DNA from: an uncultured Pseudomonadota bacterium
Lineage (GTDB): Bacteria > Pseudomonadota > Alphaproteobacteria > JACZXZ01
DNA: 64,000 nucleotides
Assembly (NCBI GenBank): GCA_963749075.1
Contig: CAVVLJ010000021.1
Location: forward strand, 544,001-608,000
Reading direction: 5' to 3'
Every line of letters starts with the position of its first letter. The first letter of the stretch is position 1. Shown here piece by piece: positions 23,806-39,579 of the stretch. The notes under the pieces are model-generated. The model was not told the DNA's origin. It did not search any database and worked only from the letters and a program-made list of their open reading frames with translations. The position numbers and the translations under genes are program-made.

Positions 23806-24529
23806 GTGCGCCGTGACAAGGCGGCGCTTTCCAGTGGGTGCAAGGCCCACCCGGCAAGCGCTCCAGCCGGAAGCAATCGGAGCAGTCATGGAGGCAACGA
23901 AATGGCTGAAGCCTTCGGATAGCGGGTCACGAATTGGTGACAGCGCGAGTGTGCAGGCCGCAACGCGAGTGAACGCCGAGCAAGCCTCGAAAAGGACGAT
24001 GTGCAGGCCGACCCGACGACCCTTTCGGGGAAGGCTGATACGCCTGGGTGAATGAGCGAAACCTACGGCCAGGCGCTGCACCGGGGTAGTGGCGGCAGCA
24101 TGTACACAAGGAAAGCGTACGCAACACGGGAAGCTCCAAGGCGTGGTCAGGGATGACCAACCGGACGCCCGCGAGGGACAGGCCGGGCGCCGTGGGGTGG
24201 CGGAGAGGTTCGTAGTACCGCTGAAGCCGGGTAACGCCGGTGGAGGGAAGGGGCCTCAGTTCAAGACAGACGCAATACGCGGTGAGGGACCTGGAGATTG
24301 GGCAACCTATCAACTCCGAAGAGTGTTCAGAAACTGCAGATGGTGTTGCACGCGAACTGTGAAGGCGTGAGGTCTTGTCCGAGAGCCGGATGCGGGAGAT
24401 CCGCACGTCCGGTTCGATGAGCGGGGTGTGGAAACGGAGCCAGGGTCGAACCAGTGAGGCACCGCCAGACGAAAGGGGCGGGAACAGATATGTTCGGCCT
24501 ACAGCCACCGCGCCACACCTCGACTCTAC
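23806..24529 (+). mobile_element. Group II intron lacking its RT ORF (IIB, class E/F-like)
   Basis: 5' GTGCG at 23806; domain V GAGAGCCGGATGCGGGAGATCCGCACGTCCGGTTC at 24381-24415; long domain VI ending CTCGACTCTAC; EBS1-like ACCC loop (24019-24022) complementary to exon end GGGT; only an RT stub at 24298-24370. Confidence 0.92.
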
Positions 24530-28962: not shown

Positions 28963-29788
28963 GCGCTGGCGCGCTGCCGGGCTCAAGCACCTGCCCTTGG
29001 CGCTCGCGGCGCTCGTCATGCTCTATCCGCTCTTGTGGATGGTCTCCGGCTCGCTCAAGACGCCGGACAGCGTGCTGACCGACATGGGTCTCGTGCCGCA
29101 GCACTGGGATTTCGACAATTACCGGCGAGGCTGGCATGGGCTTGCCGTGCCCTTCTCGGCGTTCTTCGCCAATTCGCTGCTCATCGCAGCACTCGCGGTG
29201 GCCGGCAACCTCTTCGCCTGCTCGCTCAGCGCCTTCGCCTTCGCCCGCCTGCGCTTCCCCTTCAGGCGAGCGCTCTTCGCCCTCATGCTCGGCACCCTCA
29301 TGCTGCCCTATCACGTGACGCTCATCCCCCAATATGTGCTGTTCCTCCATCTCGGCTGGGTCAATACGGTGCTGCCGCTCGTCGTCCCGAAGTTCCTCGC
29401 CGGCGACGCCTTCTTCATCTTCCTCATGGTGCAGTTCTTCCGCGGTCTGCCGCGCGAGCTCGACGAGGCGGCAATGCTCGACGGCTGCGGCCCCTTCCGC
29501 ATCTATTGGCGGATCGTGCTGCCGCTCTCGCTCCCGGTGCTCGCCACCACCGCCATCTTCTCGTTCATCTGGAGCTGGGACGATTTCTTTGCACCGCTCA
29601 TCTACCTGAGCGATCAGCAGCGCTACACCGTGCCCTTGGCGCTGCGCAGCTTCGTCGATTCGGCCGGGGTCTCGGACTGGGGGCCGCTCTTCGCCATGTC
29701 GACGCTGTCGGTGGCGCCCGTGTTCCTCCTCTTCCTCTTCTTCCAGCGCTTCCTCATCCAGGGCATCGCCATGACCGGGCTCAAGTAG
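28943..29788 (+). CDS. Sugar ABC transporter permease
   Basis: LPRELDEAAMLDG motif. Confidence 0.93.
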   Translation: MKTTQARRWRAAGLKHLPLALAALVMLYPLLWMVSGSLKTPDSVLTDMGLVPQHWDFDNYRRGWHGLAVPFSAFFANSLLIAALAVAGNLFACSLSAFAFARLRFPFRRALFALMLGTLMLPYHVTLIPQYVLFLHLGWVNTVLPLVVPKFLAGDAFFIFLMVQFFRGLPRELDEAAMLDGCGPFRIYWRIVLPLSLPVLATTAIFSFIWSWDDFFAPLIYLSDQQRYTVPLALRSFVDSAGVSDWGPLFAMSTLSVAPVFLLFLFFQRFLIQGIAMTGLK

Positions 29789-29813
29789 CGGGCCCGCCAC
29801 GAGAGAACGCGAG

Positions 29814-30854
29814 GTGAAGACCATGCCAACGGACGGTACGGTGCGCTTCGGCGTCATCGGCCTCGATCACCCGCACATCTACCAGCAGTGCGAGGCGCTC
29901 GTGCGCGGCGGCGCCGAGTTCGCCCTCTTTCAGTCCGACGAGCCGGCGCTCGCCCCGCCCTTCGCGGCCCGCTTCCCCATGGCGCGCCAGGTGAGCGATG
30001 CCCGCGCGATCCTCGAGGCGCCGGACATCGCCCTCGTGGCGAGTGCCGCGGTGCCGGGCAAGCGCGCCGGGATCGGCATCGCCGCGATGCGGCACGGCAA
30101 GGACTTCCTCTCCGACAAGCCCGCCTTCACCACCCTCGAGGCGCTCGCCGAGGCGCGCCGGGTCCAGGCCGAGACCGGGCGCATCTTCGCCGTGCTCTTC
30201 GGCGAGCGCTTCGAGAGTGCCGCCACCGTGCGGGCGCTCGAGCTGGCCCGCGCCGGCGCCATCGGCCGCGTCGTGCAGACCATCGGCCTCGGCCCCCACC
30301 GGCTCAACGCGCCGGCCCGGCCGCCGTGGTTCTTCCGCCGCGCGCTCAACGGCGGCATCCTCAACGACATCGCCTCGCACCAGATCGACCAGTTCCTCGT
30401 CTTCACCGGCTCGACGAACGCCACCATCGCCCTCGCCCGCACCGCCAACCGCGCGCATCCGCAATTCCCCGAGTTCGACGATTTCGGCGAGCTCCTCATC
30501 GACGGCCGGGCGGGGACGAGCGGCTACGTGCGGGTCGACTGGTTCACGCCGGACGGTCTCTCGACCTGGGGCGACGGACGGCTGACCGTGCTCGGGACCG
30601 AGGGCTTCATCGAGGTGAGGAAATACTGCGACCTCGCCGGCCGACCCGGCGCCGATCATCTTTTCCTCGTCGACGGGCGGGAGACCCGCTACATCGACTG
30701 CGCGCGCGTGGCGCTGCCCTTCGGGCCGGCCTTGGTGCGCGACGTGCGCGAGCGCAGCGAGACCGCGGTGCCCCAGGCCCATACCTTCCTCGTCTCCGAG
30801 CTCGCCGTGAAGGCAGAGCTCGCGGCCGCGCGGCTCGAGCCGCTCGGAGCATAG
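29814..30854 (+). CDS. Gfo/Idh/MocA oxidoreductase
   Basis: GVIGLDHPHIY, SDKP and GGILNDIASHQIDQF motifs. Confidence 0.9.
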   Translation: MKTMPTDGTVRFGVIGLDHPHIYQQCEALVRGGAEFALFQSDEPALAPPFAARFPMARQVSDARAILEAPDIALVASAAVPGKRAGIGIAAMRHGKDFLSDKPAFTTLEALAEARRVQAETGRIFAVLFGERFESAATVRALELARAGAIGRVVQTIGLGPHRLNAPARPPWFFRRALNGGILNDIASHQIDQFLVFTGSTNATIALARTANRAHPQFPEFDDFGELLIDGRAGTSGYVRVDWFTPDGLSTWGDGRLTVLGTEGFIEVRKYCDLAGRPGADHLFLVDGRETRYIDCARVALPFGPALVRDVRERSETAVPQAHTFLVSELAVKAELAAARLEPLGA

Positions 30855-30860
30855 CCGGCC

Positions 30861-31943
30861 ATGCTTCCGCTCGGCGTCGCCGTCATCGGCATGGGCATCG
30901 GGGGCCGCCACGTCGAAGCCTTCAAGGCGCTGCCGCGGCAATTCACGATTGCCGCCCTCTGCGACCTCGATGCGGCGCGCGCGCGCCAGGTGGCCGAAGC
31001 GAACGGCGTCGCCCGCGTCACGACCGACGTGGAGACGCTCTTCGACGATCCGGCGATCGCGGTGATCGACATCTGCACGCCGCCCGCCAGCCATCGCGGG
31101 CTCATCGAGCGCGCGCTCGCCGCGGGTAAGCTGGTGATCTGCGAGAAGCCGCTCGTCGGCTCGCTCGCCGAGATCGACGAGCTCATGCGCTTCGAGGCGG
31201 CGCACGGCGCGCGCATCCTGCCGGTCTTCCAGTACCGCTACGGCCAGGAGCTGCAGAAGCTCAAGCATCTCGTCGAGCTCGGCATCGCGCGGCGCCACTA
31301 CCTCACGACGGTGGAGCTCGCCTGGAGGCGGGGGCCCGACTATTACGCGACGCCCTGGCGCGGCAAGTGGCGGAGCGAGCTCGGCGGCGTGCTCGTGACG
31401 CAGGCGATCCACTTCCTCAACGTCCTCGCCTACATCCTCGGCCCGGTGCGGCGCGTCTTCGCCTCGACCGCGACCCGCGTCAACGCGATCGAGGTAGAGG
31501 ATTGCGCCGCCGCCGTGCTCGAGTTCGCGGATGGCTCGCTTGCCACGCTCGCCGCGACCTTGGGCTCGGCGCACGAGACGACGCGCCTGCGCTTCTGCTT
31601 CGACGGGCTCTCGGCGGAAAGCGGCGCCGATCCCTATAACCCGGGGACCGCACCGTGGCGCTTCGTGGCGGCGCCGGAGCTGGCGCCCCGCATGGGTGCG
31701 TGCCTTGCGGATTTCACACCCGCAGCCGACGGCTTCGCCGGCCTCTTCGCGCGCTTTGCCACGGCGCTCGAGACGGGTGCGCCGTGGCCGCTCGGCTTGA
31801 GCGATGCGCGCCGCGCCATCGAGCTCATCACGGCGCTCTATCTCTCCGCCGAGAGCGGCCGTGCGGTGCCCCTGCCCTTGCCGCCCGGCTCTGCGAAATA
31901 CGCCGGCTGGACGCCTTCCTATGCGCGCAGCACCGGCGGTTAG
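30861..31943 (+). CDS. Gfo/Idh/MocA oxidoreductase
   Basis: VIGMGIG, CEKPL and GGVLVTQAIH motifs. Confidence 0.9.
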   Translation: MLPLGVAVIGMGIGGRHVEAFKALPRQFTIAALCDLDAARARQVAEANGVARVTTDVETLFDDPAIAVIDICTPPASHRGLIERALAAGKLVICEKPLVGSLAEIDELMRFEAAHGARILPVFQYRYGQELQKLKHLVELGIARRHYLTTVELAWRRGPDYYATPWRGKWRSELGGVLVTQAIHFLNVLAYILGPVRRVFASTATRVNAIEVEDCAAAVLEFADGSLATLAATLGSAHETTRLRFCFDGLSAESGADPYNPGTAPWRFVAAPELAPRMGACLADFTPAADGFAGLFARFATALETGAPWPLGLSDARRAIELITALYLSAESGRAVPLPLPPGSAKYAGWTPSYARSTGG

Positions 31944-31947
31944 CGCA

Positions 31948-31987
31948 TAAACGAAAGGCCGCGGGGTGCTGAGGCACCTCCGCGGCC
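31948..31987 (-). terminator. Rho-independent terminator for a minus-strand transcript (may act bidirectionally)
   Basis: Minus strand reads GGCCGCGGAGGUGC-loop-GCACCCCGCGGCC followed by UUUCGUUU. Confidence 0.7.
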
Positions 31988-32563
31988 CATCGGCGGGCGA
32001 AGCCGCCTGAAATGGGTGAGGCGTCAGGAGCGTAAGCGAGAACCCACGCAAGTGTCCGGGCGGGACACCCCTGACGCCTCTGGAGCCGAAGCCCCATGGC
32101 GCAGGAGAGCGGCCAGGCTTCCGGCTGTCCCGCTCCGCAGACGCGACCCCGTGAGGGGACGCCCCCTTTGGAGCGGGGAGCCGTATCCCCCTCGCGGAGG
32201 ATCGCCGGCAAAGAGGCTCACCCGTCGGCCGCGTCCGCTCCTCCCGTCGCGTCCCTCCTCCCTTGCGGGAGAATTTTCGCGCCTGGGACCGCGATTCCCC
32301 GTAAGGTCTCGCGGCCCCCCGTGACGGCCCCGGCAGCCCGAAGGCTTACCGACGCCGATCTGGGAAAAGAGCGGCCAACCGGGAGTTCGACCTCCCGCCC
32401 GGCGGCGCGGTGTCCCGAAGAACTCCCCGCCACCGAGGCCGGGCGGTGCCGCCCCGAAGGGCCGCATCGCCCCGAAGCCCTCGTCCTCTAGCCCGCCGGC
32501 CGAAACCCCAAGGGGCAACGGTCAGTTCCGCTTGGGACGATCCGCTTCGACACTCTCTCGTGC
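31950..32563 (-). ncRNA. Candidate large structured ncRNA, copy A
   Basis: No credible ORF. Many UUCG/GNRA-capped hairpins on the minus strand, a 3' three-way junction shared with copy B, promoter TTGATC-N16-TACGAT (32598-32571) and a downstream terminator. Confidence 0.7.
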
Positions 32564-32570
32564 CGCATAA

Positions 32571-32690
32571 ATCGTACTTCACCAAGATGGAAGATCAATA
32601 AGAAAAGCGCGGCGACTTGAAAATATCTGTGCGCAGATTTGTCAATTCCGCACAATGGCTCCACAAGTTCTCCACAGTCTTATCCACAAA
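32571..32690 (-). promoter_or_regulatory. AT-rich promoter region with tandem DnaA boxes
   Basis: TTCTCCACA at 32668-32676 and TTATCCACA at 32680-32688; TTGACA on the minus strand at 32640-32645. Confidence 0.65.
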
Positions 32691-32774
32691 CAGTATTCGC
32701 TTGCGGCGGACGCGGCATTGCCATGGCCGGTTCGAGCCATTGCACGAGCTGCCGCGGAGCGCCGCCTGGCGGCC

Positions 32775-34238
32775 TCATGGCTCGGGCAATCCGGCCTTGC
32801 GCAGCCCCTCGATCATATGCTCCCGGGCGGCCGCATCGGAGTATTGCTCGAGACGCCATCGCGTCGCCCTGACGCTGCCGTTCGGCAGCATGAGCATCTC
32901 GGCGAGCGCGCCTTTCGCCTCCTCGCCGCGGCCGAGTTGCGCATAGCTCGCCGCCAAGAGATGCGAGCTATGGCCATCGGGGCGGATGCGGTGCGCTTCC
33001 AGCGCGACCTCGAGCGCGCCCTCGTAGCGCCCGAGGCTATAGAGGGCCGCTGCCTTGTGGCAGAGCATGAAGAAGGCCTGCGGGTCCCGCGGGCTGAGGC
33101 GCTGCCAAACCTCGACCGCGTCGATCGCTGCCGCGTGCTGGCCGGCATGGGTCAGCGCGGCACCGAGGGCGACGTAGCCCAGAGCGAAATTCGCGTTCAA
33201 CTCGATCGCCCGGCGCGCCGAAGCGATCGCGCTGACGGCGTCGCCGGCCTCGTCGCGAATGCGCGACAGCATGTAATGGGCAGCTGCGTTCTCGTCATCG
33301 AGCGCAATCGCCCGCTCTGCGGCCGCTTCCGCTTCCTCCCTGATCGAGGCGAAGTCCCGCGAGCCGTAGAGGCATTGCATGTTGAGCGCGCGGACCACCC
33401 CGATATGAGCTTCGGCGAGATTGGCATCGAGTGCGATCGCCGTCTGGAACAGCCGGTAGGCGGCGAGCGCCTCCGCCTCGGCCGCCTTTCCCTTGTAGGT
33501 GAAGCTCGAATTGCGCGCGATGACGAAAAACGAGCGCCACTTGGAGAGCGCCGTGATGATGTCCTCGGTGATGCCGTCGACGAAGTATTCCTGCTCCGGG
33601 TCGCCGCTCATGTTGTTGAACGGCAGCACGGCGATCGAGGGCCGGTCGGGCAGCGGCGGCGATGGCGCAAGCTGCGGCGGCGCCGCGGGAGCCCTCCGCC
33701 CGCCGAGCAGGATGCGGTGGGCGTGAACCGGCCTTGCGATGTTCTTGACCTGTTGCTGGCCCATGTCCTCGAAGACGAAGCCGAGTTTGTCGCGCACCTG
33801 GTCGCGCACGACGCGGCTCACGCAGATGCCGCCGGGCTCCGCCAGGGCTTCGAGCCGCGCCGCGACATTGACGCCGTCGCCGAAGATGTCGCCCTTGTCG
33901 ATGATGACGTCGCCGAGGTTGATGCCGATGCGGAACTCGATGCGCCGCCCGGCCGGCACCGGGGCATTGCGCTCGGCCATTGCCGTCTGCACCTCGACGG
34001 CGCAGCGCACCGCATCGACGACGCTGGCAAACTCGACGAGCAGCCCGTCGCCGGTGGTCTTGACGATGCGGCCGCGGTTCTCCGCGATCCTGGGGTCGGC
34101 CAATTCGTGGCGCACCGCCTGCAACGCCGCAAGCGTGCCCTCCTCGTCCTCGCCCATCAGCCGCGAATAGCCAGCGACATCGGCGGCGAGGACCGCTGCC
34201 AGCCGCCGCTCGACGCGCTCCCGCTCCCCGCTGCTCAT
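32775..34238 (-). CDS. Class III adenylate/guanylate cyclase-TolB_N-TPR protein (internally shortened)
   Basis: AADVAGYSRLM, KTTGDG, GDGVNVAARLE and PSIAVLPF motifs; TPR repeats. Confidence 0.9.
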   Translation of the reverse strand: MSSGERERVERRLAAVLAADVAGYSRLMGEDEEGTLAALQAVRHELADPRIAENRGRIVKTTGDGLLVEFASVVDAVRCAVEVQTAMAERNAPVPAGRRIEFRIGINLGDVIIDKGDIFGDGVNVAARLEALAEPGGICVSRVVRDQVRDKLGFVFEDMGQQQVKNIARPVHAHRILLGGRRAPAAPPQLAPSPPLPDRPSIAVLPFNNMSGDPEQEYFVDGITEDIITALSKWRSFFVIARNSSFTYKGKAAEAEALAAYRLFQTAIALDANLAEAHIGVVRALNMQCLYGSRDFASIREEAEAAAERAIALDDENAAAHYMLSRIRDEAGDAVSAIASARRAIELNANFALGYVALGAALTHAGQHAAAIDAVEVWQRLSPRDPQAFFMLCHKAAALYSLGRYEGALEVALEAHRIRPDGHSSHLLAASYAQLGRGEEAKGALAEMLMLPNGSVRATRWRLEQYSDAAAREHMIEGLRKAGLPEP

Positions 34239-34414
34239 CGCCCTGCATCCAAAAGCTCGGCGAAGCCTGTCCGGACACTCGCAAGTGGAGCCCGACCGCC
34301 CGGCGCCAGCATAGCCGGGGGCGCTCGCGTTATGGAAGCGATCCGATCGAGGCCGCGCGGGCGATCGGCTCATCCGACCTGCGGCGAGGCCGCCATGCGC
34401 TTGGTGCCGCGCGC

Positions 34415-34999
34415 TCAGCCGCGCCGGCGCAGCACCGCCACGAGATAGCGGCACCGTCCGCGTCCCGGGTTGACGAAGCGGCAGTCCGCGGGCGGGCCGA
34501 GGCGCAGGCAGTCGCCCGGGCCGAGATCATAGGCGGTCTCTCCCTGGACGAAGCGCAGGCGCCCCGCGAGCGCCACGATCTGCTGGTCCTCGATGAAGGC
34601 GAAGGCGGTGCTGGGGTAGGCGATCTCGGCACCCGCCGGCAACTCGCCCCAGACGAGCTCGAGCGGCGCCTCGGAGCTGCCGGGCGGCGTCAACGCGCGG
34701 CGGCGGAAGCCGGTCGCGGGGTCGCGCCAGACCTCTTGCCGGGCGGCGCGCAGAAGCCGCCCGCCCGCACCCTCGGCGCGGGCGAGGAGCTGCGAGAGGC
34801 TGAGCCCGAAGGCGCCCGAGAGACGGCCCAAGAGGGCCGCCGTCGGGCTGCTCGCGCCGCGCTCGACCTTGCTGATCATGGCGCGCGAGACGCCCGAGCG
34901 CCGCGCCAGCTCGTCCAGGCTCCAGCCCCGCGACGCGCGCTCGCTCTTCAGCCGGGCGGCCAGCCGGGCGTCGATCGAGTCCTCTATCATAGGAGACAT
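34415..34999 (-). CDS. XRE-cupin transcriptional regulator
   Basis: SLDELARRSGVSRAMISKVERG; C-terminal cupin LGPGDCL. Confidence 0.9.
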   Translation of the reverse strand: MSPMIEDSIDARLAARLKSERASRGWSLDELARRSGVSRAMISKVERGASSPTAALLGRLSGAFGLSLSQLLARAEGAGGRLLRAARQEVWRDPATGFRRRALTPPGSSEAPLELVWGELPAGAEIAYPSTAFAFIEDQQIVALAGRLRFVQGETAYDLGPGDCLRLGPPADCRFVNPGRGRCRYLVAVLRRRG

Positions 35000-35061
35000 T
35001 GTTATATTATAGTAGAAAATGCCAGGGACGGCCAAGGCCTTTCTCGGAGAGGTGCCGGGCG

Positions 35062-35568
35062 ATGACGGACGACATCCGCGATGCCACGCGCGACGACCTG
35101 CCGCGCATCCTCGCCATCACCAACGAGGCGATCGCCAACACGACGGCGCTTTGGACGCTCACGCCGACGGCGCTCGCGGCGCGCGCCGAGTGGTACGAGG
35201 AGCGCCGCCGCCTGGGCTTTCCCGTCCTCGTGGCGAGCATCGGGGGCGAGGTGCTCGGCTTCGCCTCGTTCGGCAGCTTCCGGCCGTGGGAGGCCTATGA
35301 GCGGACGGTCGAGCATTCGCTCTACATCGATGCCGCGGCGCGCGGGCGCGGGCTCGGCTCCGCACTCCTCGCAGCCCTCGTGCGGCGCGCCGAGGCGGGC
35401 GGCATGCACGCCATGGTCGGCGGCATCGAGGCGGGCAACGCCGCCTCGCTCCGCCTTCATGCCCGGCTCGGCTTCCGCGAGGCCGGCCGTCTCCGCGAGG
35501 TCGGGCGCAAGTTCGGCCGCTGGCTCGATCTCGTGTTCATGGAGCTCCTGCTCGGCGGCGGGCGCTGA
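35062..35568 (+). CDS. GNAT N-acetyltransferase (MnaT/PAT-like)
   Basis: TVEHSLYI…RGRGLG…NAASLRLH…VGRKFGRWLD. Confidence 0.9.
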   Translation: MTDDIRDATRDDLPRILAITNEAIANTTALWTLTPTALAARAEWYEERRRLGFPVLVASIGGEVLGFASFGSFRPWEAYERTVEHSLYIDAAARGRGLGSALLAALVRRAEAGGMHAMVGGIEAGNAASLRLHARLGFREAGRLREVGRKFGRWLDLVFMELLLGGGR

Positions 35569-35596
35569 AGGGCGCCGCCTCGGGGAGAGCGCAAGC

Positions 35597-36040
35597 GTGC
35601 TCGGCACCCTGGCAACGCTTCTCCTCCTCGCCGCCGCCGGCTGCGGGCTCGTCGCGCAGAACCTGCTGATGAGCCGCATCGCCGGCGGCGGGGCGATCTT
35701 GCCTGCGCTCTTGGCGAACTCCGCCGTGGGCTTGGCCCTCATCGTGGCGGCGGGATCGGGGTGGTACGGCAGCGCCTTCATAGCCGACACGGCGGCGCGC
35801 TTTCGCAGCTGGTGGATTCTTCCGGGCGTGCTCGGAACCCTCTTCGTCTTCGCCAGCGTCGCCGGCTACCGCCAGCTCGGCGCCGCGGCCACCTCGGCTG
35901 TGCTCATCGCCGTGCAACTCGCGGCGGCGCTGATGGCCGATGCGCTCGGCCTTGGCCCTGCCTTGCGGCCGGTCGGCCTCACGCAATGGCTCGGCGCCGC
36001 GCTTCTCGTGCTCGGCGCGACGCTTGTGCTGCGCAAATGA
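35597..36040 (+). CDS. DMT family transporter (YdcZ-like)
   Basis: GLVAQN, WWILPGVLG and LGAA…QL…D motifs. Confidence 0.8.
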   Translation: MLGTLATLLLLAAAGCGLVAQNLLMSRIAGGGAILPALLANSAVGLALIVAAGSGWYGSAFIADTAARFRSWWILPGVLGTLFVFASVAGYRQLGAAATSAVLIAVQLAAALMADALGLGPALRPVGLTQWLGAALLVLGATLVLRK

Positions 36041-36084
36041 AGGCGGCGTCAGGAGTGTCCCGAGGCCCCGAATACTTAGCAGAA

Positions 36085-36640
36085 ATGAAGGCGGCGTCGG
36101 GAGCGTAAGTTGGACTTACGCGCGTGTCCGGGCGGGACACTCCCGACGCCGCCGGGGCCTGGGCGGACCCCCGATGCCGGAGCGGCATGCGACCGCACCG
36201 CCACCGGCGCGCGCGTGCCTCAGGGAGAAACGCGCGCCACGCCGGTGCTTGAGGGCCAAGTCCGCCCTGGGCGGGACGGAGCCCTGGCCCGCGGCACGTC
36301 GCGGTTCGCGAAACCATGCCGGGGAACGGCCGCCGCTCGCGCGCCGACCCTTCCCAAGCTCAGGGAAGCCGGCTCTCCCGGGCGAGGAGAGGGCCCCCCT
36401 TGGCCGGCCTTGCGGGGCGCCTTGCGGCGTCCCTCCGTCCGGCCCCTGGCCCGCGTCCCGACGATCCGGCCTCCCCTGTCGCGACGGGCCGATCTGCGCG
36501 GACCGGCCTGCGACCGAGGACACCCCGCCCTCTTGCGAAGGCGGCGCCGCGCGTGCTTTGGGATCGCGGCCCGCGCCGGCCGGCGCCCGAAGGCGGCACG
36601 TCCGATGCGACCCGCATGTCCCATTGCGATGCACTCCAGC
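36085..36640 (-). ncRNA. Candidate large structured ncRNA, copy B
   Basis: Shares GCGTAAG…ACGC..GTGTCCGGGCGGGACAC and a covarying closing helix with copy A. GCAA/UUCG hairpins and 5'-3' long-range pairing on the minus strand. Confidence 0.68.
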
Positions 36641-36644
36641 ACCG

Positions 36645-36772
36645 AGAAAGAATAGTGACGGCCGTTCCTGCGAGCAGCAATGGAAAAATCAAGTAATTGT
36701 CAAATTTCTTGTGAATAAACAATGGCCTTCCTCACAATCTCCCAACAGATTGTCCACAGAGTTGTACACAGA
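36645..36772 (-). promoter_or_regulatory. AT-rich promoter region with tandem DnaA-like boxes
   Basis: TTGTCCACA at 36750-36758 and TTGTACACA at 36762-36770; TTGACA on the minus strand at 36698-36703. Confidence 0.6.
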
Positions 36773-37004
36773 TTCTCTGCACGCCGCGCTCCCTTCAGGT
36801 GCGCAACCGCCGAAGCCCTGCGGTTCCCCGGGAAAAATCCCCCCATCGCCGCCGCGGCCGCGCGTTTTTGCTGCGTTGCCGCAGATTGACTTAGGCGCCC
36901 GCGAGGCATAGAAAACCTACCGATACCCTGCCGGAACCCGGGCAGCTCACCGCCCGCGGCCGCTCCAGCGCTCGGCACGCCGAACCCGCCGAAGAAGGCG
37001 CCTC

Positions 37005-37403
37005 ATGACTCCCCGCAACAGGCCGCTCTCGCCCCATCTCACGATCTATCGCCCGCAGCTCACCTCGGTGCTCTCGATCATGCACCGGATGACCGGAGTG
37101 GCGCTCTCCTTCGGCACGTTCCTCCTCGTGTGGTGGATCGTGGGTCTGGCGCGCGGCCCCGCTTCCTTCGCGACCGTCCAGCATTTCCTCGCCTCGATCA
37201 TCGGCAGGCTCATGCTCTTCGGCTGGAGTTGGGCGCTCTTCTACCATCTCACGAACGGCCTCCGCCATCTCGCCTGGGACGCCGGCTGGGGTTTCGAGCT
37301 CAAGGACGTCTATCGCAGCGGCTGGTTCGTATTCGCGACCTCGGTGGCGCTCACGCTCATCGCCTGGATCGCCGGCTACGCCGTGATGGGGGCGCAGCCA
37401 TGA
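37005..37403 (+). CDS. sdhC: Succinate dehydrogenase cytochrome b556 subunit
   Basis: [18 protein letters not shown] and HLTNGLRHL motifs. Confidence 0.97.
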
Positions 37404-37789
37404 GCGGCATCCGCACGCCGCTCGGCCGCGCGCGCGGCCTCGGCTCGGCGAAAGAGGGCCCGCAGAATTGGTGGATGGAGCGCTTAACCGCGCTTGCCCT
37501 CGTGCCGCTCGGGCTGTGGTTCGCCTATTCGATGGTGTCGCTCGCGGGCGCCGACCACGGCACGGTCGCCATGTGGCTTGCGCGCCCGCGCAACGCCGTG
37601 CTCATGATCGTCCTCGTCATCGCCACCTTCCGTCACGCCCAGCTCGGCCTCAGCGTGGTGATCGAGGACTATGTTCAAGGCAGGGCGTTGCAGCTGGCAA
37701 CGCTCATCGCCGTCAGGTACCTCGCCGTGCTGCTCGCGGCGGGCAGCGTCTTCGGCATCGTCAGGGTCGCGTTCGGAGTGGTCGGCTGA
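37400..37789 (+). CDS. sdhD: Succinate dehydrogenase membrane anchor
   Basis: [12 protein letters not shown] and HAQLGL.VVIEDYV motifs. Confidence 0.96.
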
Positions 37790-39579
37790 TGGCACAGGCC
37801 TACGAGATCATCGACCATAGCTACGACGTGGTGGTGGTGGGTGCGGGCGGCGCGGGCTTGCGGGCCGCACTCGGCATCGCCGAGAAGGGGCTCAAGTGCG
37901 CCTGCGTGACCAAGGTCTTCCCCACGCGCAGCCATACGGTGGCGGCGCAGGGCGGCATCAGCGCCGCCCTCGGCAACATGGGGGAGGACGACTGGCGCTG
38001 GCACATGTACGACACGGTCAAGGGCTCCGACTGGCTCGGCGACCAGGACGCCATCGAATACATGTGCCGCGAGGCGGTCCCGGCGGTAATCGAGCTCGAG
38101 CATTACGGCGTGCCCTTCTCGCGCACGCCCGAGGGCAAGATCTACCAGCGCCCCTTCGGCGGCATGACGACGGACTTCGGCGAGGGCACGGCGCAGCGCA
38201 CCTGCGCCGCCGCCGACCGCACCGGCCATGCCATCCTCCACACCCTCTACGGCCAGGCGCTCAAGCGCCATGCCGAGTTCTTCATCGAGTATTTCGCCCT
38301 CGACCTCATCATGGACGAGGACGGCGGTTGCCGCGGCGTGATGGCCTGGAACCTCGACGACGGCACCATCCACCGCTTCAGCGCGGCGCTCACCATCGTG
38401 GCGACCGGCGGCTACGGCCGCGCCTATTTCTCCTGCACCTCGGCGCATACCTGCACGGGCGACGGCAATGCCATGGTGCTGCGCGCCGGCCTGCCGCTTG
38501 AGGACATGGAGTTCGTGCAGTTCCATCCGACCGGCATCTACAGCGCCGGCTGCCTCATCACCGAGGGTGCGCGCGGCGAGGGCGGCTACCTCACCAACTC
38601 CGAGGGCGAGCGCTTCATGGAGCGCTACGCGCCCCACGCCAAGGACCTCGCCTCGCGCGACGTGGTGAGCCGCGCCTCGACCATCGAGATGCGCGAAGGG
38701 CGCGGCTGCGGGCCCAAGAAGGACTACGTGCTCCTCCACCTCGAGCACCTCGATCCCAAGGTGCTGCACGAGCGTCTCCCCGGCATCTCGGAGACGGCGA
38801 TGATCTTCGCCGGCGTCGACGTGACCAAGGAGCCCATCCCGGTGCTGCCCACTTGCCACTACAACATGGGCGGCATTCCGACCAACTACCACGGCGAGGC
38901 GCTGACGCGCTTGAATGGCGACGCCAATCACGTGGTGCCCGGGTTGATGGCGATCGGCGAGGCTGCCTGCGTCTCGGTGCACGGCGCCAACCGGCTCGGC
39001 TCGAACTCGCTGCTCGATCTCGTGGTGTTCGGCCGGGCTGCCGGCCTGCGTGCCGCCGAGCTGGTCAAGCCGGGCGAGCGGTTGAAGCCGCTTGCCAAGG
39101 GTGCCGGCGAGGCAGCGCTCGCGCGTCTCGACCGCCTGCGCCATGCCGACGGCGGCACACCGACGGCGCGCCTGCGCCTCGAGATGCAGCGCGCCATGCA
39201 GAGCGACTGCGCCGTCTTCCGCACGGGCGAGGTGCTGGCGGTCGGGCTCGCCAAGCTGCAGCAGTGCTGGGTGAAGCGCGCCGATCTCAAGGTGAGCGAC
39301 CGCTCGCTCATCTGGAACAGCGACCTCATGGAGACCCTCGAGCTCGACAATCTCCTGGCCCAGGCGCTCTGCACCATGGGCTCGGCCGGCCAGCGCACCG
39401 AGAGCCGCGGCGGGCACGCGCGCGAGGACCACAAGGAGCGCGACGACGTGAATTGGCTGAAGCATACGCTCGTGTGGTGCGATGACGGCGGCAAGCTCAG
39501 CTTCTCCGACCGCCCGGTGCACCTGCAGCCGCTCACCAACGAGGTGCAGTCCTTCCCGCCCAAGGCGCGGTCGTACTGA
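37789..39579 (+). CDS. sdhA: Succinate dehydrogenase flavoprotein subunit
   Basis: [15 protein letters not shown] and [11 protein letters not shown] motifs. Confidence 0.98.

Follow-up and report, generated by a model that had tools for sequence, protein, structure and literature searches.

Two paralogous genes for an undescribed large structured RNA of Alphaproteobacteria, preceded by phased arrays of DnaA-like boxes

What is encoded in two long gaps between genes that hold no credible open reading frame (ORF), and which factor reads the AT-rich blocks beside them? The question is raised by a stretch of 64,000 nucleotides (nt) from an uncultured alphaproteobacterium (contig CAVVLJ010000021.1, positions 544,001 to 608,000), referred to below as the window. 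An earlier note, made from the sequence alone, had placed in these gaps a pair of paralogous structured RNA genes with DnaA boxes in front of them. Both intervals are there as described. The analysis confirmed that window positions 32010-32566 (copy A) and 36082-36646 (copy B), on the minus strand, are paralogous genes of a structured non-coding RNA of about 560 nt. Both intervals are GC-rich gaps between genes, and on the plus strand an AT-rich block comes after each of them. The copies have a common homologous 3' end and a similar AT-rich block, together with diverged bodies. In the whole genome of 5.49 megabases (Mb), the RNA is present in these two copies only.

The structure proposed for the two copies is borne out by covariation in both of them, and their paralogy is supported as well. 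For copy A, 10 orthologues, which are 67-82% identical, were aligned. The consensus fold of this alignment contains 181 pairs, and 67 of them have compensatory changes on both sides. When the partners were slid by 1-3 columns, such pairs numbered 16-26; shuffling gave 27.7±3.7, and none of the 500 shuffles reached 67. In the same structure 93.8% of cells are paired vs 42-52% with slid partners. The copy-B consensus, obtained with 7 orthologues, has 170 pairs with both-side changes in 48. It is closed by a helix of 5' GGUGCUG with CAGCAC located just ahead of the 3' hairpins. The specific pairing between the 5' end of copy B and its 3' part that had been suggested earlier is missing from the consensus fold, and the GGUGCUG/CAGCAC helix is found instead.

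Long open frames occur on both strands of the regions, including those of 164 and 172 amino acids on the minus strand. The regions might on this ground be read as diverged protein genes, or as decayed remnants of a repeat or mobile element, rather than as RNA genes. Such a reading is hardly credible. Substitutions in the copy-A orthologue alignment lack 3-base periodicity (variable columns modulo 3 number 115, 134 and 133; p = 0.41), and 149 of the 157 gap runs are not multiples of three, i.e., the indels break the frame. The mechanically called ORFs have no match in a Pfam search. A protein-coding gene is thus contradicted by the covariation, the absent periodicity and the frame-breaking indels, and the non-coding character claimed from the sequence holds. 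A repeat or mobile element was rejected as well: two copies are all that the genome holds, Tandem Repeats Finder (TRF) finds no repeats in the RNA bodies, and synteny is kept across orders.

The minus strand is taken as the RNA strand because tetraloop counts, GC skew and fold energies favour it. Counted over 55 family members, UNCG hairpins number 145 and GNRA hairpins 140 on the sense strand (285 in total) vs 11 and 40 (51 in total) on the antisense strand. The dominant loops are UUCG (117), GCAA (56) and GCGA (37), the same three that had been read on the minus strand of the window. GC skew is positive in 56 of the 57 family members. For copy A, the minus-strand fold (-379.8 kcal/mol, z -6.8) is 52 kcal/mol more stable than the plus-strand fold (-327.2 kcal/mol, z -4.7).

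Both RNAs are represented in RNA libraries. Words of copy A were found in 17 metatranscriptome runs; 25-47% of the words were present in four soil runs, and the other 13 runs contained no more than 9% of the sampled words. Contigs of the four soil runs, all from one study, were mapped on window positions 29500-39500; these contigs carry no strand, ends or level. They cover 32052-32551 in copy A and 36150-36629 in copy B. Examples are contigs of 154 and 131 nt with 0 differences and a 480-nt contig over 36150-36629 with 7 differences. The contigs mean that RNA libraries contain sequences which match both RNAs exactly or almost exactly, nothing more. Contigs are few or absent over the neighbouring genes and over the AT-rich promoter blocks, and word depths there do not exceed 12. 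The summed word depth over the RNA bodies reaches about 1e5 in the four runs; this contrast is not used as evidence of expression level, as depth cannot rank genes and a lack of cover proves nothing.

The 3' domain that the earlier note considered common to both copies is confirmed as such. Segments 32018-32080 and 36090-36153 are 77-83% identical and fold into a three-way junction. The two inner hairpins of the copy-A junction include the family-invariant GUGUCC-CGCCC-GGACAC, and the core of the outer stem, GGCGUC/GACGCC, is nearly unvarying across the family. Both-side changes were found in 6 of 30 junction pairs in 16 sequences. In 72 sequences they were found in 23 of 30 pairs, with 95.1% of cells paired vs 35-55% in slid controls, and this larger alignment leans towards structure because it was fitted to the covariance model. 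Most members end in a U-rich tail; in the member from genome G027, CCUGACGCCC is followed by seven U. Transcription of copy A may run on to a second terminator hairpin located beyond the junction (31958-31988), which is likely a back-up terminator or a bidirectional one that also serves the convergent GFO/IDH/MocA gene. Between the two RNA genes lies an additional, incomplete copy of the 3' domain. Similar partial copies are found between B and A in relatives, and all of them are scars of the tandem duplication.

The RNA family spans several orders of Alphaproteobacteria. BLAST of each copy against 41 genomes (the genome itself, its relatives and class-level samples) revealed homologues in all 10 other genomes of the same family and a full-length homologue in a genome of another family (G027). 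Two covariance models were used, the first built from the last 130 nt of the RNA and the second broader. The first model detected the RNA in each of 11 genomes of the order. In a sample of the class containing one genome per family, the first model detected it in 12 of 151 genomes and the second in 14. A pattern scan of 185,579 species genomes yielded 82 stretches representing 80 loci, and the covariance model confirmed 58 of these. The titles of the confirmed contigs include Inquilinaceae, Dongiaceae, Stellaceae, Rhodovibrionaceae, Minwuiaceae, Hypericibacter, Rhodospirillaceae, Rhodospirillales and plain "Alphaproteobacteria". The loci that the model failed to confirm (Streptomyces, other Actinomycetota, Chloroflexi etc.) are chance matches to the pattern.

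By the measure of Rfam 15 and the literature, this family is undescribed. The only Rfam 15 matches in the whole window are two group II intron models at 23832-24529, where a group II intron lies on the plus strand (group-II-D1D4-4, 99.5 bits; Intron_gpII, 44.4 bits). A permissive search of 31800-36900 (E up to 10) gave 8 matches, all far below the gathering score (best 24.2 vs 42.5 bits), and 18 diverse family members compared with Rfam gave one tRNA only. The novelty expected earlier therefore holds with respect to Rfam. RNase P RNA, tmRNA, SRP RNA, 6S RNA, group I and II introns, OLE, GOLLD, ROOL, raiA and HEARO were considered and rejected, as neither copy has a gathering-score Rfam 15 match to any of them. 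No description of the RNA was found in full-text literature, whose supplementary files could list it. The accessible part of the text of PMC11109978 has zero mentions of sdhC, succinate dehydrogenase, DnaA, Alphaproteobacteria or Rhodospirill. The tests on which the earlier note had staked its RNA claim all turned out favourably, i.e., no Rfam match, covarying homologues, no coding signal and presence in RNA libraries.

Every inspected locus follows a common plan. A phased box array is followed by an opposed box, a T-rich stretch, the -35 and -10 elements of a sigma-70-like promoter, a 5' hairpin, the body, a further hairpin and the three-way junction with the U-rich tail. The array comprises one consensus DnaA box and then two or three weaker boxes of the same orientation, spaced 11-12 base pairs (bp) start to start. 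The 5' hairpin is, for example, GGCAC-GAGAGA-GUGUC in this genome and CCGGUAC-GAGAGA-GUACCGG elsewhere. The body is composed of a variable number of very stable hairpins capped by UUCG or GNRA loops, and its length ranges from about 150 to about 1000 nt. Among conserved words of the body outside the ends, only the tetraloop hairpins stand out, with a mild excess of GGACGG-type words. A minimal form of about 150 nt with a single UUCG hairpin is the unlinked paralogue of genome G060. The unlinked paralogue of genome G156 (G156:C24, locus L170 about 1105-1631) has 12 cUUCGg hairpins, mostly 31-33 nt apart; this periodicity is structural only, since TRF finds no sequence repeat. The three boxes upstream of the latter copy are all in the TTATCCACA (opposed) orientation. 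Another short member, about 200 nt long (G101:C20, locus L168 about 1300-1630), adjoins an open frame read by eye as a truncated serine-recombinase gene. This neighbour hints that some copies may travel with mobile DNA.

Table 1. Features of the two RNA genes and their surroundings in the window (positions of the window; strand as read)
Feature	Start	End	Strand	Description and basis
Copy A RNA gene	32010	32566	-	predicted start about 32565, end at the three-way-junction terminator; covariation, RNA-library contigs, no coding signal
Copy A three-way junction	32018	32080	-	outer stem GAGGCGUCAGG / CCUGACGCCUC; covariation
Copy A core promoter	32571	32598	-	-35 TTGATC (32593-32598), 16-nt spacer, -10 TACGAT (32571-32576)
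Copy A DnaA-box block	32628	32688	-	order on the minus strand: boxes 1-4, TTGACA, degenerate opposed box
Copy B RNA gene	36082	36646	-	covariation in orthologues; RNA-library contig
Copy B three-way junction	36090	36153	-	alignment to copy A and covariation
Copy B core promoter (candidate)	36651	36680	-	-35 TTGCTG (36675-36680), 18-nt spacer, -10 ACTATT (36651-36656)
Copy B DnaA-box block	36710	36770	-	opposed box and four phased 9-mers
GC-rich hairpin	31958	31988	-	followed by UUUCGUUU on the minus strand; read from the sequence and folded
Partial extra copy of the 3' domain	36034	36061	-	repeat families D2 and D4; overlaps the DMT_YdcZ stop codon
Insertion between the copies	32775	36040		3.5 kb; four genes by Pfam search
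sdhC	37005	37403	+	Pfam Sdh_cyt, E 1.6e-36; conserved divergent neighbour of the RNA

The AT-rich blocks ahead of both copies contain TTGACA, ACAATGGC and DnaA-like 9-mers 12 nt apart, in agreement with the first reading of this DNA. Upstream of the copy-A promoter there is a T-rich stretch (32599-32627), and the position of this promoter relative to the box array and the 5' hairpin is conserved in orthologues. The aligned B orthologues have TTGCCG ... CACTATAC at the place of the copy-B promoter. In copy A, box 1 is TGTGGATAA, a perfect consensus at 32680-32688 (TTATCCACA at 32680 as plus strand), and box 2 is TGTGGAGAA at 32668-32676 (TTCTCCACA at 32668 as plus strand). Boxes 3 and 4 occupy 32657-32665 and 32646-32654, and the opposed box CTGCGCACA (32628-32636) ends about 30 nt upstream of the -35 element. 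In copy B, the opposed box TTATTCACA (minus-strand sense, 36710-36718) is a good match. The phased 9-mers of this copy are located at 36728-36736, 36739-36747, 36750-36758 (plus strand: TTGTCCACA) and 36762-36770 (plus strand: TTGTACACA), and TRF reports a 12-nt period at 36745-36774 in the same block.

Such sites are rare in this genome. Perfect DnaA boxes number only 9, one of them in the copy-A array. Two boxes with no more than one mismatch within 300 bp occur at three places genome-wide, two of which are these RNA promoter blocks. When a profile of the box array was run against the whole genome, these two sites alone were recovered (E 1e-11 and 2e-9, followed by 2.5 for the next match).

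The third box pair of the genome (contig C21, 105300-105690; locus L049, about 2300-2690) consists of two perfect, opposed boxes 34 bp apart. It adjoins a GC-rich stretch of about 330 nt with no Rfam match, whose minus-strand end is a hairpin followed by a T run. To judge by eye, the flanks resemble the 3' portion of an isochorismatase-type gene together with small phage-like genes. This locus may represent a further RNA linked to DnaA, or else the end of an integrated element.

The boxes were surveyed in 57 public loci, with the confirmed locus L152 left out. A TGTGGATAA box with at most one mismatch lies upstream of the 3' domain in 46 of them, and most of the others are short of upstream sequence. 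Box 1 is exactly TGTGGATAA in most lineages. When 50 non-redundant promoters were aligned on this box, a second box was found at +11/+12 in 26; 35 promoters have TGTG at +22/+23, and 34 have it at +34/+36. A TTATCCACA-like box of opposed orientation occurs in 41 promoters, either at +39 to +41 (20 promoters) or at +51/+52 (21 promoters), the two classes differing by one box unit. The consensus of this opposed box, which was not used for promoter selection, is TTATnCACA(G/A)GAAAT (also TTATNCACA(G/A)GAAAT). The copies of G060 and G156 located on contigs away from their sdhC-adjacent copy keep the DnaA boxes; therefore, the array belongs to the RNA promoter. In 8 of the 57 loci a further DnaA-type box comes just after the junction. 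In L077/L163, L141 and L111 this box is TTATCCACA or TTTATCACA, so that boxes stand on both flanks of the gene; none is found there in the window copies.

The perfect box of copy A and the upstream boxes of the public loci make up the layout of a DnaA-regulated promoter. The case that motifs make for DnaA control is stronger than in the earlier note, as the array is phased, conserved across orders and moves with copies unlinked from sdhC. DnaA probably binds the array and sets transcription. In the E. coli oriC, a high-affinity site feeds clusters of four weak sites 2 bp apart, which are filled cooperatively (part of PMC6070618). In the same manner, DnaA would bind the consensus box of the RNA promoter, and from there its ATP form would spread to the weak boxes in a cooperative manner. 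In this way the promoter would respond to the DnaA-ATP level, and RNA synthesis would be tied to the replication-initiation status, by either activation or repression.

The boxes could also serve a factor other than DnaA. According to this alternative, the RNA family is real and the phased 9-mers bind, e.g., an OmpR/PhoB-type response regulator, which recognizes direct repeats of 11-bp period. Response regulators of the winged-helix type classically have sites arranged as direct repeats that share a TGTG(G) core and are spaced 11-12 bp, and boxes 3 and 4 retain little beyond TGTG. The regions upstream of dnaA and hemE in this genome have no comparable or good DnaA boxes, a fact which suits such a regulator. 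What makes the alternative unlikely is that two independent elements fit the full 9-bp DnaA consensus, not TGTG alone. The opposed box played no part in the selection and has the consensus TTATnCACA, and the 9 perfect boxes in 5.49 Mb include one at this very place.

The location of the genes on the chromosome bears on two further explanations. On contig C21, dnaA lies at 20 kb, hemE at 150.6 kb, gidB/parB at 174.7-176.5 kb and the RNA locus at 576-581 kb. Another lineage, with a closed chromosome of 5.37 Mb, has 439 kb between the RNA and parB, and genome G007 has 279 kb. The order hemE(+), parB(+), RNA(-) is the same in all three genomes, two of which belong to one family. The alphaproteobacterial origin is usually near hemE. 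If this is so here, the RNA would be transcribed against the replication fork. The locus is not the canonical origin, since hemE/parB are 0.28-0.44 Mb away. It was also considered that the locus is a chromosomal or second origin with an origin-associated or primer-like transcript. Phased DnaA boxes beside an AT-rich block would suit an origin, as would the cumulative GC-skew minimum of C21, which falls in the 580-kb bin. This skew is too weak to read, not exceeding 0.03 per 50 kb on all large contigs, with the amplitude of the minimum within noise. The hemE, gidB and parB genes, markers of the origin region in Alphaproteobacteria, are 400 kb off in this genome, and tandem and unlinked copies are unfit for a single origin, which leaves this explanation very improbable. 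A Bac_DnaA domain match on the minus strand of C21 (G000:C21:20390-20873) is split into two pieces in different frames, which could be a dnaA frameshift or a draft-assembly error.

The second explanation, which is the main rival, assigns the function to the DNA itself. The arrays would be a DnaA-control locus outside the origin, similar to datA and DARS of E. coli, regions that titrate DnaA or change its nucleotide-bound state. Transcription of the very active adjacent stable-RNA gene would modulate the occupancy of the arrays. The arrays are indeed the only multi-box DnaA clusters of such design in the genome, and in three genomes the locus keeps its order and orientation relative to hemE/parB at a distance of 0.28-0.44 Mb. 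The control regions of E. coli keep a conserved distance from oriC (accessible text of PMC5010248). Furthermore, datA adjoins a highly transcribed tRNA operon, and tRNA-Gly read-through regulates the binding of IHF to datA (accessible text of PMC10950094). The distance comparison covers three genomes, two of them of one family. No clear IHF consensus (or Fis site) was seen in the blocks, which were read by eye with no formal scan made. Strong selection on RNA structure would be needless for a mere modulator by transcription, and the same design is found at copies elsewhere in the genome. With these points taken together, a function in the DNA is improbable as the main explanation.

A broader scheme joins several of these elements into a so far undescribed hub of replication and metabolism, and it is a speculative one of low probability. 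An oriC-like array sensing DnaA-ATP at a conserved origin-proximal position would drive a highly transcribed hairpin-packed RNA against the fork. The RNA, or its making, would feed back on DnaA availability or fork passage, similar to datA/DARS with a large RNA as the effector, and the shared intergenic region would tie it to succinate dehydrogenase expression.

The neighbourhood of the RNA is conserved. The sdhC gene is divergent from the RNA in 8 of 8 fetched family loci and in 39 of the 57 public loci, and the box array is located between the two promoters. The element might therefore act on sdhCDAB, either through the divergent promoter (a shared regulator or supercoiling coupling) or through pairing of the RNA with the sdh mRNA. 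This is quite improbable. The copies of G060 and G156 on contigs other than that of their sdhC-adjacent copy, as well as the G101 copy, have the same design and no sdhC start in about 1.2 kb upstream, and a covarying structure of 150-1000 nt is needless for promoter coupling.

In four genomes of the same genus (G003, G005, G004 and G001), copies B and A form a head-to-tail pair with about 150 nt between them, and this pair immediately precedes the divergently transcribed sdhC. In two genera of the family the RNA is present as a single copy. Compared with the four genomes, A and B of the window are a tandem pair that was split by a 3.5-kb insertion in this genome only. The insertion carries an adenylate/guanylate cyclase with TPR repeats, an HTH_3 regulator, a GNAT acetyltransferase and a DMT_YdcZ exporter. 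The sole sigma-70 consensus match of the region is at 35006-35035 on the minus strand, ahead of the HTH gene. In several lineages, the gene convergent with the RNA is that of mesaconyl-CoA hydratase (Pfam MC_hydratase), for example in L044 (4880-5944, plus strand), L043 and L048. The ancestral context looks like mch / RNA / sdhCDAB, with the GFO/IDH/MocA oxidoreductase in the place of mch in the window.

At present, a DnaA-responsive promoter array joined to a trans-acting structured RNA is the best overall explanation, and the balance tips moderately in its favour. The strong selection on RNA structure indicates that the RNA itself matters. A tentative proposal is that it works in trans, being a long-lived RNA that serves a protein as scaffold or decoy; this proposal is prompted by the protected ends, the hyper-stable hairpins and the number of hairpin modules varying between lineages. 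A number of observations weigh against this explanation. In the promoter part, the opposed box of copy A is degenerate and the array of copy B has no perfect DnaA box. The lack of comparable boxes at dnaA and hemE means that there is no internal positive control for DnaA recognition in this genome. The sequence TTGATC-N16-TACGAT, given earlier as the promoter of copy A, is present at its place; it matches the consensus at 8 of 12 positions only, too few to pass the threshold of the consensus scan. Neither the copy-A nor the copy-B promoter is flagged by the generic scan, which also leaves unflagged the terminators of both copies, hairpin 31958-31988 included. The promoter and terminator that the earlier note assigned to copy A are not confirmed in that form. 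The library contigs say nothing of strand, ends or level. In the RNA part, the body has almost no conserved primary sequence and therefore gives no handle on a partner, which also fits a role for transcription itself. No conserved protein gene was seen to accompany the RNA. The sole candidate partner tested, CsrA, fails, as a Pfam search gave no match in this genome and detected it in only 4 of the 14 carriers; overall, 29 of the 151 genomes have it.

New classes of large structured RNA are rarely found in bacteria, and each so far has pointed to unexpected biology. The carriers of the present class belong to several orders of soil and freshwater Alphaproteobacteria that have been studied little. 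An RNA located behind a row of DnaA sites hints at a link of replication control to RNA, and we know of no precedent for a DnaA-array promoter of an RNA gene. Such a promoter copies the design of an anchor with weak sites by which oriC senses DnaA-ATP. If control by DnaA is true, the replication initiator would feed directly into an RNA-based process, and an easily testable system would be at hand for replication-status signalling in Alphaproteobacteria beyond Caulobacter. The array of UUCG hairpins, from about one to about 12, is a natural series for structure-function work.

Among known large RNAs, OLE, GOLLD, ROOL and raiA are similar to the present family in that they are hundreds of nucleotides long, have dense covariation-supported structure and lack coding capacity. 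Unlike these, the family is hosted by Alphaproteobacteria, matches no Rfam model and has no associated protein gene in sight; its body has almost no conserved sequence, and the hairpin modules vary from about 1 to about 12. To our knowledge, a promoter with a DnaA-box array is known for none of the four. Exceptionally high expression has been reported for OLE RNA (accessible text of PMC3413148).

The sponge RNAs CsrB and RsmZ are also modular, with short repeated hairpins whose number varies by species and with a terminator at the end. The repeated element of the present RNA differs from theirs, being a cUUCGg or GNRA hairpin rather than a GGA loop. A CsrA sponge is excluded for this genome, in which CsrA was not found; the dominant loops of the family are UUCG, GCAA and GCGA instead of GGA.

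Caulobacter CcnA is likewise an alphaproteobacterial non-coding RNA tied to cell-cycle regulators. It is a short base-pairing RNA whose gene lies at the origin and is activated by CtrA. Judging from the lack of an Rfam match, it has no sequence or structure in common with the present family. CcnA modulates CtrA and GcrA (accessible text of PMC8959179).

The promoter part is closest in form to the low-affinity arrays of oriC, as one consensus site is followed by weaker 9-mers of the same orientation 2-3 bp apart. The difference is that the locus is off the hemE/parB region, exists in tandem and unlinked copies and has a promoter with an RNA gene after the array, not an unwinding element. The E. 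coli datA, DARS1 and DARS2 regions are likewise groups of DnaA boxes that lie apart from the origin, and their distance from it is roughly conserved. Unlike these regions, the boxes described here stand upstream of a dedicated promoter of a structured RNA and move together with that RNA.

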